Positions 32,029 to 32,139 of a stretch of 64,000 bases of DNA are shown in pieces. Made by a program: the position numbers and the translations under genes. The notes beneath the pieces were generated by a model. It did not search any database and had not been told where the DNA came from. It saw only the letters and a program-made list of their open reading frames with translations. Position 1 is the first letter of the stretch; the number at the start of each line of letters is the position of its first letter. This DNA comes from Prorocentrum cordatum (Eukaryota). Location: the NCBI GenBank assembly GCA_963575745.1, contig CAUYUJ010000233.1, forward strand, positions 1 to 64,000, given 5' to 3'.

Positions 32029-32139
32029 ACAGCGAGAGCCACGCGTCCACGCTAGAGCCAAAATGGCCGCGGACGGTGTGCGAGTCTGTGCCCGCCGCAA
32101 GGTGCCCAAAGTGCCCCTCGCATTAATTATAATGCCCAT
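32029..32139 (-). repeat. Split direct repeat A1 (5' terminus of YR element)
   Basis: Nearly identical to 24419-24531 (acagcgagagccacgcgtccacgctagagccaaaatggccgcggacgg...gcattaattataatgcccat). Confidence 0.93.

Follow-up and report, generated by a model that had tools for sequence, protein, structure and literature searches.

The DNA analysed here (the window) comprises the first 64,000 nucleotides (nt) of contig CAUYUJ010000233.1 from the Prorocentrum cordatum assembly GCA_963575745.1. Its minus strand carries a degenerate tyrosine-recombinase retrotransposon of the DIRS/Ngaro type, arranged in the order A1-gag-pol-recombinase-B1-A2-B2, and each of the two A repeats contains a 22-nt motif that resembles the dinoflagellate spliced leader (DinoSL). 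The motif, TCCGCGGCCATTTTGGCTCTAG, is present without a mismatch in A1 (32052-32073, minus strand) and in A2 (24442-24463, minus strand), as had been proposed in an earlier, sequence-only reading of the locus. Compared with the canonical DinoSL, DCCGTAGCCATTTTGGCTCAAG (PMC7245778, PMC5585692), it is identical at 19 of the 22 positions, the changes being T5>C, A6>G and A20>T. A third leader-like site, at 41685-41706 on the plus strand, differs from the element motif at two positions and matches the DinoSL at 21 of 22, its sole change being the same A20>T. The two further statements of that reading, a match of 19/22 and a variant common to the element and the relict at 41685, therefore both hold, T20 being the shared base. 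The third site is an ordinary relict DinoSL, with A6 kept and without a hairpin, and lies upstream of an unrelated, unannotated open reading frame (ORF) with its ATG at 41781.

Within A1, which begins with ATGGGCATT, the 22-mer is preceded by 66 nt, and 76 nt separate its end from the gag start codon at 31975. An AT-rich box, ATTATAATTAAT, recognized from its letters only, is located near the 5' end of A1 (32122..32133, minus strand) and has a copy in A2 at 24514-24525. The distances first suggested for the motif (about 66 nt from the terminus, about 77 nt before gag, with an AT-rich box upstream) were thus reproduced almost to the nucleotide, the box reading from 32133 to 32122. Matches to the 22-mer were absent from 100 dinucleotide shuffles of the window, and its chance expectation in the window is none. 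An Rfam scan of positions 23000-43000 gave nothing at the motif and only low-complexity, microRNA-like noise, with the limit that Rfam may lack a DinoSL model. Long ACAT/ACAG/CAATA microsatellites at 33980-35900 gave rise to dozens of spurious, sub-threshold microRNA matches in the same database.

The terminal sequences form split direct repeats, with A1 and A2 about 95% identical and B1 and B2 95-97% identical. A1 (32029..32139, minus strand) is 111 nt long, and its 5' boundary can be placed only to within a few nt, given the likeness of the target site to the B|A junction; A2 (24419..24531, minus strand) is 113 nt long and differs from A1 by four substitutions and one 2-nt indel. B1 (24532..24627, minus strand) abuts A2 on its upstream side, and B2 (24261..24373, minus strand), with which the element ends on its 3' side, aligns with B1 in two blocks (97.5% and 94.6%) separated by a short insertion. 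The spacer between A2 and B2 is 45 nt. All differences between A1 and A2 fall in the 66 nt upstream of the 22-mer, and none in the 22-mer itself or in the next 23 nt. This clustering may be due to chance (estimated p ~0.1), since the window copy is degenerate, and it provides no evidence of selection within the copy. A role of the motif as recombination site was considered and rejected: the crossover is the B|A junction, 66 nt from the motif.

Conservation of the motif among related elements

A search of metagenome contigs with a reverse transcriptase (RT) alignment yielded 39 related loci. Similarity to gag was found in eight of them, and the gag N-terminus is reached only in L014, L029 and L034, the other five (L002, L003, L017, L020 and L039) starting inside gag. 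All three loci that extend into the gag leader contain a DinoSL-like motif on the sense strand, with 18-19 of 22 positions matching, 65-148 nt before gag: L029 at 781-802 (19/22, 72 nt to the gag ATG), L034 at 6107-6128 (19/22, 148 nt) and L014 at 62-83 (18/22, 65 nt). Together with the window, each of the four elements has a single motif in its gag leader. The L014 site was counted only since it reaches 18/22 at the homologous place, and a match at L034:2996, inside pol, was treated as chance.

The four gag proteins are homologous (E 2e-17 to 2e-38) at 26-33% identity, a divergence at which neutral leader sequences would no longer be alignable. Indeed, in a BLAST comparison of the leaders of L029 and L034 the motif is the sole nucleotide similarity (19 nt, 95%). 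By our own calculation the chance of such a match within 300 nt is ~4e-5 per locus. A loose scan with a 13-nt core, allowing two or fewer mismatches, gave five matches compared with a mean of 2.3 in mononucleotide shuffles; the count is not significant, so that the weight of the argument falls on full-length matches at a homologous position. The sequence-only reading had made its proposal depend on conservation in sibling elements, and the motif occurs in three of three, in an identical place and orientation. This conservation supports the view that the motif is a maintained adaptation linked to trans-splicing. Among the relatives of the element proteins, the named ones belong to Prorocentrum cordatum, Symbiodinium sp. 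and Polarella glacialis, and the hosts of the related contigs are therefore most likely dinoflagellates.

Other searches were negative within their scope. The start of the A repeat, used as an anchor, had no match in viral or in metagenome contigs, and the motif combined with its downstream sequence had none in viral contigs; protein searches gave no confirmed relatives in viral contigs (RT and gag) or in prokaryote genome contigs (gag). The L034 contig is a circularly permuted unit of 7290 bp, in which positions 1-119 are identical to 7291-7409; such a permutation is expected to result from collapse of the A and B repeats by the assembler, or from a circular or tandem form.

At the 3' ends of the related loci, L006 terminates in GGTCATTTTGACCTA (L006:5388-5410), located ~700 nt past the recombinase homology and cut by the contig end. 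This partial sequence is suggestive of an A2 motif. Both changed stem positions of its mini-hairpin are compensated (C-G to U-A and A-U to G-C), with the caveat that 4-bp stems around ATTTT also arise by chance. The 3' end of L036 has no motif (<5 mismatches in a 16-nt core; L008 and L033 likewise) and may stop before A2. BLAST gave no support for an apparent resemblance of the L033 3' end to the beginning of L014.

Examination of the base pattern in the four elements shows an invariant block, GGCC.TTT.GGCT..AGC. Over positions 7-22, agreement with the DinoSL amounts to 14-16 of 16, compared with two or three of five over positions 2-6; position 1, which is degenerate (D) in the DinoSL, fits in every element. 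The sole change common to all four is A6>G, which abolishes the internal AG of the leader at positions 6-7. The terminal AG is retained throughout, as is a TTTT or TTTG, and the base that follows the terminal AG is C in each case (CGTGG, CAATC, CTACA and CCGGC). A6 is kept in both leader-like sites that lie outside gag leaders, namely the window relict at 41685 and a site in L021 at 1739, between pol and the recombinase gene.

The L021 site, with its intact A6, is followed by degenerate partial leader repeats (L021:1739-1800) just upstream of the recombinase ATG. Tandem relict arrays are typical of genes that have been retro-copied repeatedly, and the array suggests that the recombinase mRNA was trans-spliced separately and re-entered the element, as a copy, on more than one occasion. 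It would be the kind of outcome that A6>G prevents: the internal AG of relict DinoSLs has been described as a potential acceptor (PMC5585692). In Polarella, 70% of DinoSL cDNAs begin at leader position 2 or 8 (PMC7245778), from which we infer that copying of the leader often halts near position 8; the likeness of the element motif to the leader, followed in the 3'-to-5' direction, drops off near the same position. Since the single change of the relict at 41685, A20>T, equals the T20 of the element, the host may use a T20 variant of the leader.

The motif could also be a functionless scar, borne by each lineage from the copying of its trans-spliced RNA. More than 20% of dinoflagellate genes have upstream relict leaders (PMC5585692), one such relict is found at 41685 in the window, and the window copy of the element is dead. 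We nevertheless consider a passive relict improbable and disfavour it, because a neutral scar fits poorly with the conservation at one place in all four elements, across gag proteins this divergent and leaders otherwise unalignable, with the identical A6>G, with flanks that pair (see below), and with a motif that occurs twice per element, 66 nt inside the repeat rather than at the 5' edge of a retrocopy. The motif looks like an old captured host leader, kept as a structured part of the element leader, and not like a decaying scar.

Predicted structure around the motif

The motif and its flanks are predicted to form a hairpin in both A repeats, at 32037..32081 in A1 and at 24427..24471 in A2 (both minus strand). 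In A1, the predicted stem joins 2 nt upstream of the motif and motif positions 1-6 (32075-32068) to CGTGGACG (32051-32044), which stands directly 3' of the terminal AG, with one G.U pair; the stem encloses GCCATTTTGGCTCTAG. L029 and L034 are predicted to have an outer stem, which in L034 includes two G.U pairs, and an inner stem formed by GGCTCAAG and its inverted copy. The predicted 5' arm starts 2-8 nt upstream of the motif in every element.

Folding of 86 nt of the sense strand, relative to shuffled sequences, gave z-scores of -3.54 for A1, -2.69 for A2, -3.50 for L029, -8.22 for L034 and -2.48 for L014, compared with +0.23 and +0.91 for the two ordinary relicts, which served as controls. 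Pairing of the flanks was assessed separately, by comparing the 8 nt upstream plus positions 1-7 with the 45 nt downstream over 2000 shuffles. The resulting p values are 0.034 (A1), 0.020 (A2), 0.0015 (L029), 0.002 (L034) and 0.14 (L014), as opposed to 0.94 and 0.11 in the two ordinary relicts. Combined by Fisher's method over the four independent elements, they amount to ~2e-5 (our own calculation). The predicted structure is supported sequence by sequence, without formal covariation.

These results could be read as a structured RNA signal apart from trans-splicing, in which a hairpin with the loop AUUUUGG would function in packaging, in dimerisation or in binding proteins (such as Sm proteins, as a look-alike of the SL RNA) and the leader origin would be only history. 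The contrast between elements and controls is in keeping with such a signal, both in the folds (z -8.22 to -2.48 versus +0.23 and +0.91) and in flank pairing (p 0.0015-0.14 versus 0.94 and 0.11). The G.U pairs in the stems of the window element and L034 fit an RNA of the sense strand, in L029 and L034 the change A6>G makes a palindrome, TGGCCA, out of TAGCCA, and in Fugacium SL RNAs the leader lies within a paired stalk (PMC6616646). However, the alignment contains no covarying pair, the stems vary in register and length, and neither the leader likeness, highest at the 3' end, nor the T20 match to the other relict of the window would be explained. On balance we consider this reading unlikely.

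The extent of the predicted 5' arm bears on a further proposal, namely that the element encodes its own leader in cis, with transcription starting at the first base of the 22-mer so that no trans-splicing is needed. In favour of this are the leader likeness itself (19/22) and the AT-rich box, which in the window lies 47-58 nt upstream of the 22-mer. The sequence-only reading had offered such a mimic at the RNA 5' end as one of its two explanations; it is now disfavoured, since the paired 5' arm reaches 2-8 nt beyond the 22-mer in every element. The conserved unit would then begin before the mimic, and the motif would be internal to the transcript and not at its cap. Moreover, positions 2-6, nearest to the supposed cap, are the least leader-like, and dinoflagellates are reported to use TTT(T/G) instead of TATA (PMC5585692). 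A leader encoded at the cap is accordingly very unlikely.

Even less probable is a captured SL RNA gene or pseudogene, consisting of the leader exon and the start of its intron. The 5' part of the motif is predicted to pair with the sequence just after it, as exon and intron do in SL RNAs (PMC6616646). However, the introns of SL RNAs begin with GU or GC (PMC6616646), and the C that follows the AG in all four elements leaves no such donor after the motif, which argues against an SL RNA gene, as does the lack of an Rfam match at the site, for what that is worth in a database that may have no model of the DinoSL.

Coding regions and insertion site

The gag-like ORF of the window (30929..31975, minus strand) shares homology with gag in L014, L029 and L034. 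The C-terminal portion with the zinc knuckle runs on in another frame (30983-30537), owing to a frameshift near 30990, and sibling contigs in sequencing run X1 have an extra base at 30988/30990. Four runs were compared over 28250-32200; X1, whose type is a guess, contributed diverged sibling copies in the form of contigs, and X2-X4 matched only a low-complexity stretch near 30626-30757. Among the X1 variants listed, none falls within 32052-32073, and no weight is given to this. The pol region (28275..30925, minus strand), which occupies several frames in the window copy, consists of an RT with a YVDD motif followed by an RNase H-like stretch. The RT matches Pfam RVT_1 with an E value of 2.9e-08, which passes the Pfam cutoff, and its relatives include a Prorocentrum cordatum protein of 64% identity. 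For the RNase H there is no Pfam match in 28275-28775, and the pol of L034 gives a sub-cutoff match to RT_RNaseH (E 0.0043).

The recombinase ORF (24665..26341, minus strand) displays HSLR...GRW...Y motifs and is interrupted by an in-frame stop at 25346-25348, where its relatives have Leu. Weak but specific support for its putative assignment to the tyrosine recombinases comes from a profile of seven sequences, for which all 17 of the 17 matches in the Protein Data Bank (PDB) are Cre/Tre, over the catalytic C-terminus of Cre (best E 0.019); the match to Pfam Phage_integrase is below cutoff (E 0.16). The gag frameshift, the splitting of pol over several frames and the stop in the recombinase together show the window copy to be dead.

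In the window, L014 and L029, gag and pol share one frame with a lone stop codon between them (window 30926-30928, L014:1742-1744, L029:2276-2278); in L034 there are several in-frame stops. The single stop suggests that pol may be expressed through stop-codon readthrough. Two blocks of internal tandem repeats (26398-27517 and 27814-28182, minus strand) lie in the interval from the RNase H-like region to the recombinase gene, one with a 234-bp unit in ~5 copies and the other with a unit of ~75 bp in five copies and a AATTCTGAGCGC...GCGCTCAGAATT palindrome.

The element is inserted without a target-site duplication, and its flanks join into an uninterrupted unit of a 354-bp satellite. The insertion target, GGGTCCATGTT|GGGAG, resembles the B|A junction of the element, GGGTGCCAGTGCC|ATGGG. 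The satellite (~354 bp), composed of CCAAGACGGCC-like units of 10-11 nt, is found at 23552-24260 and 32140-32363 and reaches a depth of ~2 million in run X1.

Possible role of the motif and comparison with known systems

The account that we favour, tentatively, is that the motif represents a captured leader, that the host leader is spliced at its terminal AG and that A2 restores the 5' end; it corresponds to the second of the two explanations offered in the sequence-only reading. The DinoSL would have been captured long ago, through reverse transcription of trans-spliced element RNA, and fixed since then in the A repeat and gag leader of a clade of dinoflagellate DIRS/Ngaro-type elements. The primary transcript would start upstream of the motif, within A1, and the host leader would be trans-spliced at the AG that ends the motif, such that the look-alike is exchanged, nucleotide by nucleotide, for the real leader and the gag-pol mRNA becomes capped and translatable, with an ordinary 5' untranslated region of ~90-170 nt. 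By removing the internal AG, the potential acceptor of ordinary relicts, A6>G would preclude splicing inside the motif and hence the build-up of tandem relicts. During reverse transcription, the leader at the 5' terminus of the RNA would be homologous to the motif in A2; the cDNA would switch there and copy back the 66 nt of A lost to trans-splicing, with the host-supplied leader acting like a retroviral R repeat. The stem that joins positions 1-6 to the sequence beyond the AG would be confined to unspliced RNA, where it may regulate the acceptor or mark the genomic RNA. This model accounts for A6>G, for a terminal AG that has been kept, for a leader likeness that declines in the 3'-to-5' direction, for the copy in A2 and for the shared T20; the occurrence of T20 in both the element and an independent relict of the window is expected if the motif tracks the host leader.

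A portable core promoter, which the sequence-only reading had not raised, is the next possibility and a strong rival, one that we rate as less probable than the acceptor model and as more probable than a separate RNA signal. The captured leader would in this case supply TTT(T/G), with transcription starting ~30 nt downstream, near the end of A, and the transcribed A2 copy would rebuild A1 in the manner of U3 in long terminal repeat (LTR) elements. Relict DinoSLs have been proposed as basal promoters with TTT(T/G) as their best-kept part (Song et al. 2017, PMC5585692), those located 50-100 nt before an ATG being the best conserved (PMC5585692). The gap between motif and gag ATG is 65-76 nt in three of the four elements and 148 nt in L034, all of them retain TTTT or TTTG, and A ends 23 nt past the motif, ~31-34 nt past the T run, a plausible distance between promoter and start. 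However, the promoter role of relict DinoSLs is itself a hypothesis, and the conserved block GGCC.TTT.GGCT..AGC, with its terminal AG, exceeds TTT(T/G). A DNA promoter would predict neither flanks that pair on the sense strand, G.U pairs included, nor the shared A6>G.

Several points weigh against the acceptor and template-switch model. The promoter explains the position of the motif equally well. Only four element lineages are available, three of them from metagenome contigs, and A2 is seen whole only in the window element: L006 ends in the partial, diverged GGTCATTTTGACCTA at a contig edge, and the 3' ends of L008 and L033 are without the motif, although they possibly stop before A2 and count neither way. 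The T20 match depends on one relict. The predicted inner stem of L029 and L034 contains the terminal AG and could hinder its use as acceptor. The flank pairing of L014, taken alone, is not significant (p 0.14), the outer stems are in different registers across the four elements, with no alignment in a single register, and RNAalifold, applied to the four leaders, returned only an invariant 4-bp GGCC/GGCU mini-hairpin and no covarying pair. A more far-reaching form of the same model, in which the host leader is the R repeat of the family, such that replication depends on and co-evolves with it, A6>G guards against mis-splicing and the hairpin marks the genomic RNA, we regard as conceivable but doubtful.

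The nuclear mRNAs of dinoflagellates all lose their native 5' end to trans-splicing, which is a direct problem for retroelements that regenerate their ends from RNA. In the literature searched (main texts of freely available papers), we found no account of how dinoflagellate retrotransposons cope with this loss and no leader-derived motif described in a dinoflagellate transposon repeat; a search for the exact variant string retrieved one unrelated Arabidopsis paper only. A relict DinoSL inside a DIRS-type element combines known kinds. A structured, leader-derived motif at one place in DIRS-like elements with proteins ~30% identical offers a concrete, testable handle, and it lends itself naturally to testing whether relict DinoSLs serve as promoters, as has been proposed. 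Should the motif follow variants of the host leader, T20 being one example, it would in addition mark the co-evolution of element and host.

Relict DinoSLs were reportedly described upstream of dinoflagellate retrogenes by Slamovits and Keeling in 2008. Like such relicts (PMC5585692), the element motif would be a genomic copy of the 22-nt leader made through reverse-transcribed, trans-spliced RNA, and it lies on the sense strand, 50-150 nt upstream of a start codon. It shares with them the match to the leader and departs from them in its position away from the 5' boundary and in its lack of the internal AG. Unlike the relicts, it is placed 66 nt inside a terminal repeat, occurs twice per element and is kept across elements whose proteins are ~30% identical; A6>G and the pairing flanks set it apart from the ordinary relicts at 41685 in the window and in L021.

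In retroviruses and LTR elements, the R region is a short sequence at the 5' terminus of the RNA that occurs again near the 3' end and guides the template switch. The dinoflagellate element is similar in that a short repeat at the 5' and 3' ends would guide the switch that rebuilds the terminal repeat, and in having a structured leader before gag. Unlike retroviral R, its 5' copy would be derived, under the favoured model, from trans-splicing by the host and not from transcription of the element.

The arrangement of the repeats (A, coding region, B, A, B) is that of the Symbiodinium DIRS elements (de Mendoza et al. 2018, PMC5890265). As in other DIRS/Ngaro-type elements, there is a gag, a divergent RT with a putative RNase H, a tyrosine recombinase encoded in its own ORF, and no target-site duplication (PMC5890265). 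Unlike the Symbiodinium elements (PMC5890265), the window copy has no DNMT domain in a Pfam scan. The terms 'spliced leader', 'splice leader' and 'DinoSL' are absent from PMC5890265, where a leader motif in the A repeat is thus not described.

Retrotransposons of trypanosomes, which also inhabit trans-splicing hosts, provide the remaining comparisons. Like the Pr77 promoter and HDV-like ribozyme of Trypanosoma cruzi L1Tc (PMC3383444, PMC5814959), the dinoflagellate motif would be the answer of a retrotransposon to such a host, located within the first tens of nucleotides of the element. L1Tc differs in that it relies on unspliced, leaderless transcripts, an internal promoter and ribozyme trimming, with no leader look-alike (PMC3383444, PMC5814959). 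The SLACS and CZAR elements are likewise tied to a spliced-leader sequence (PMC5814959). Unlike these, which insert into SL RNA genes (PMC5814959), the element described here carries the leader within itself and is inserted in a satellite.
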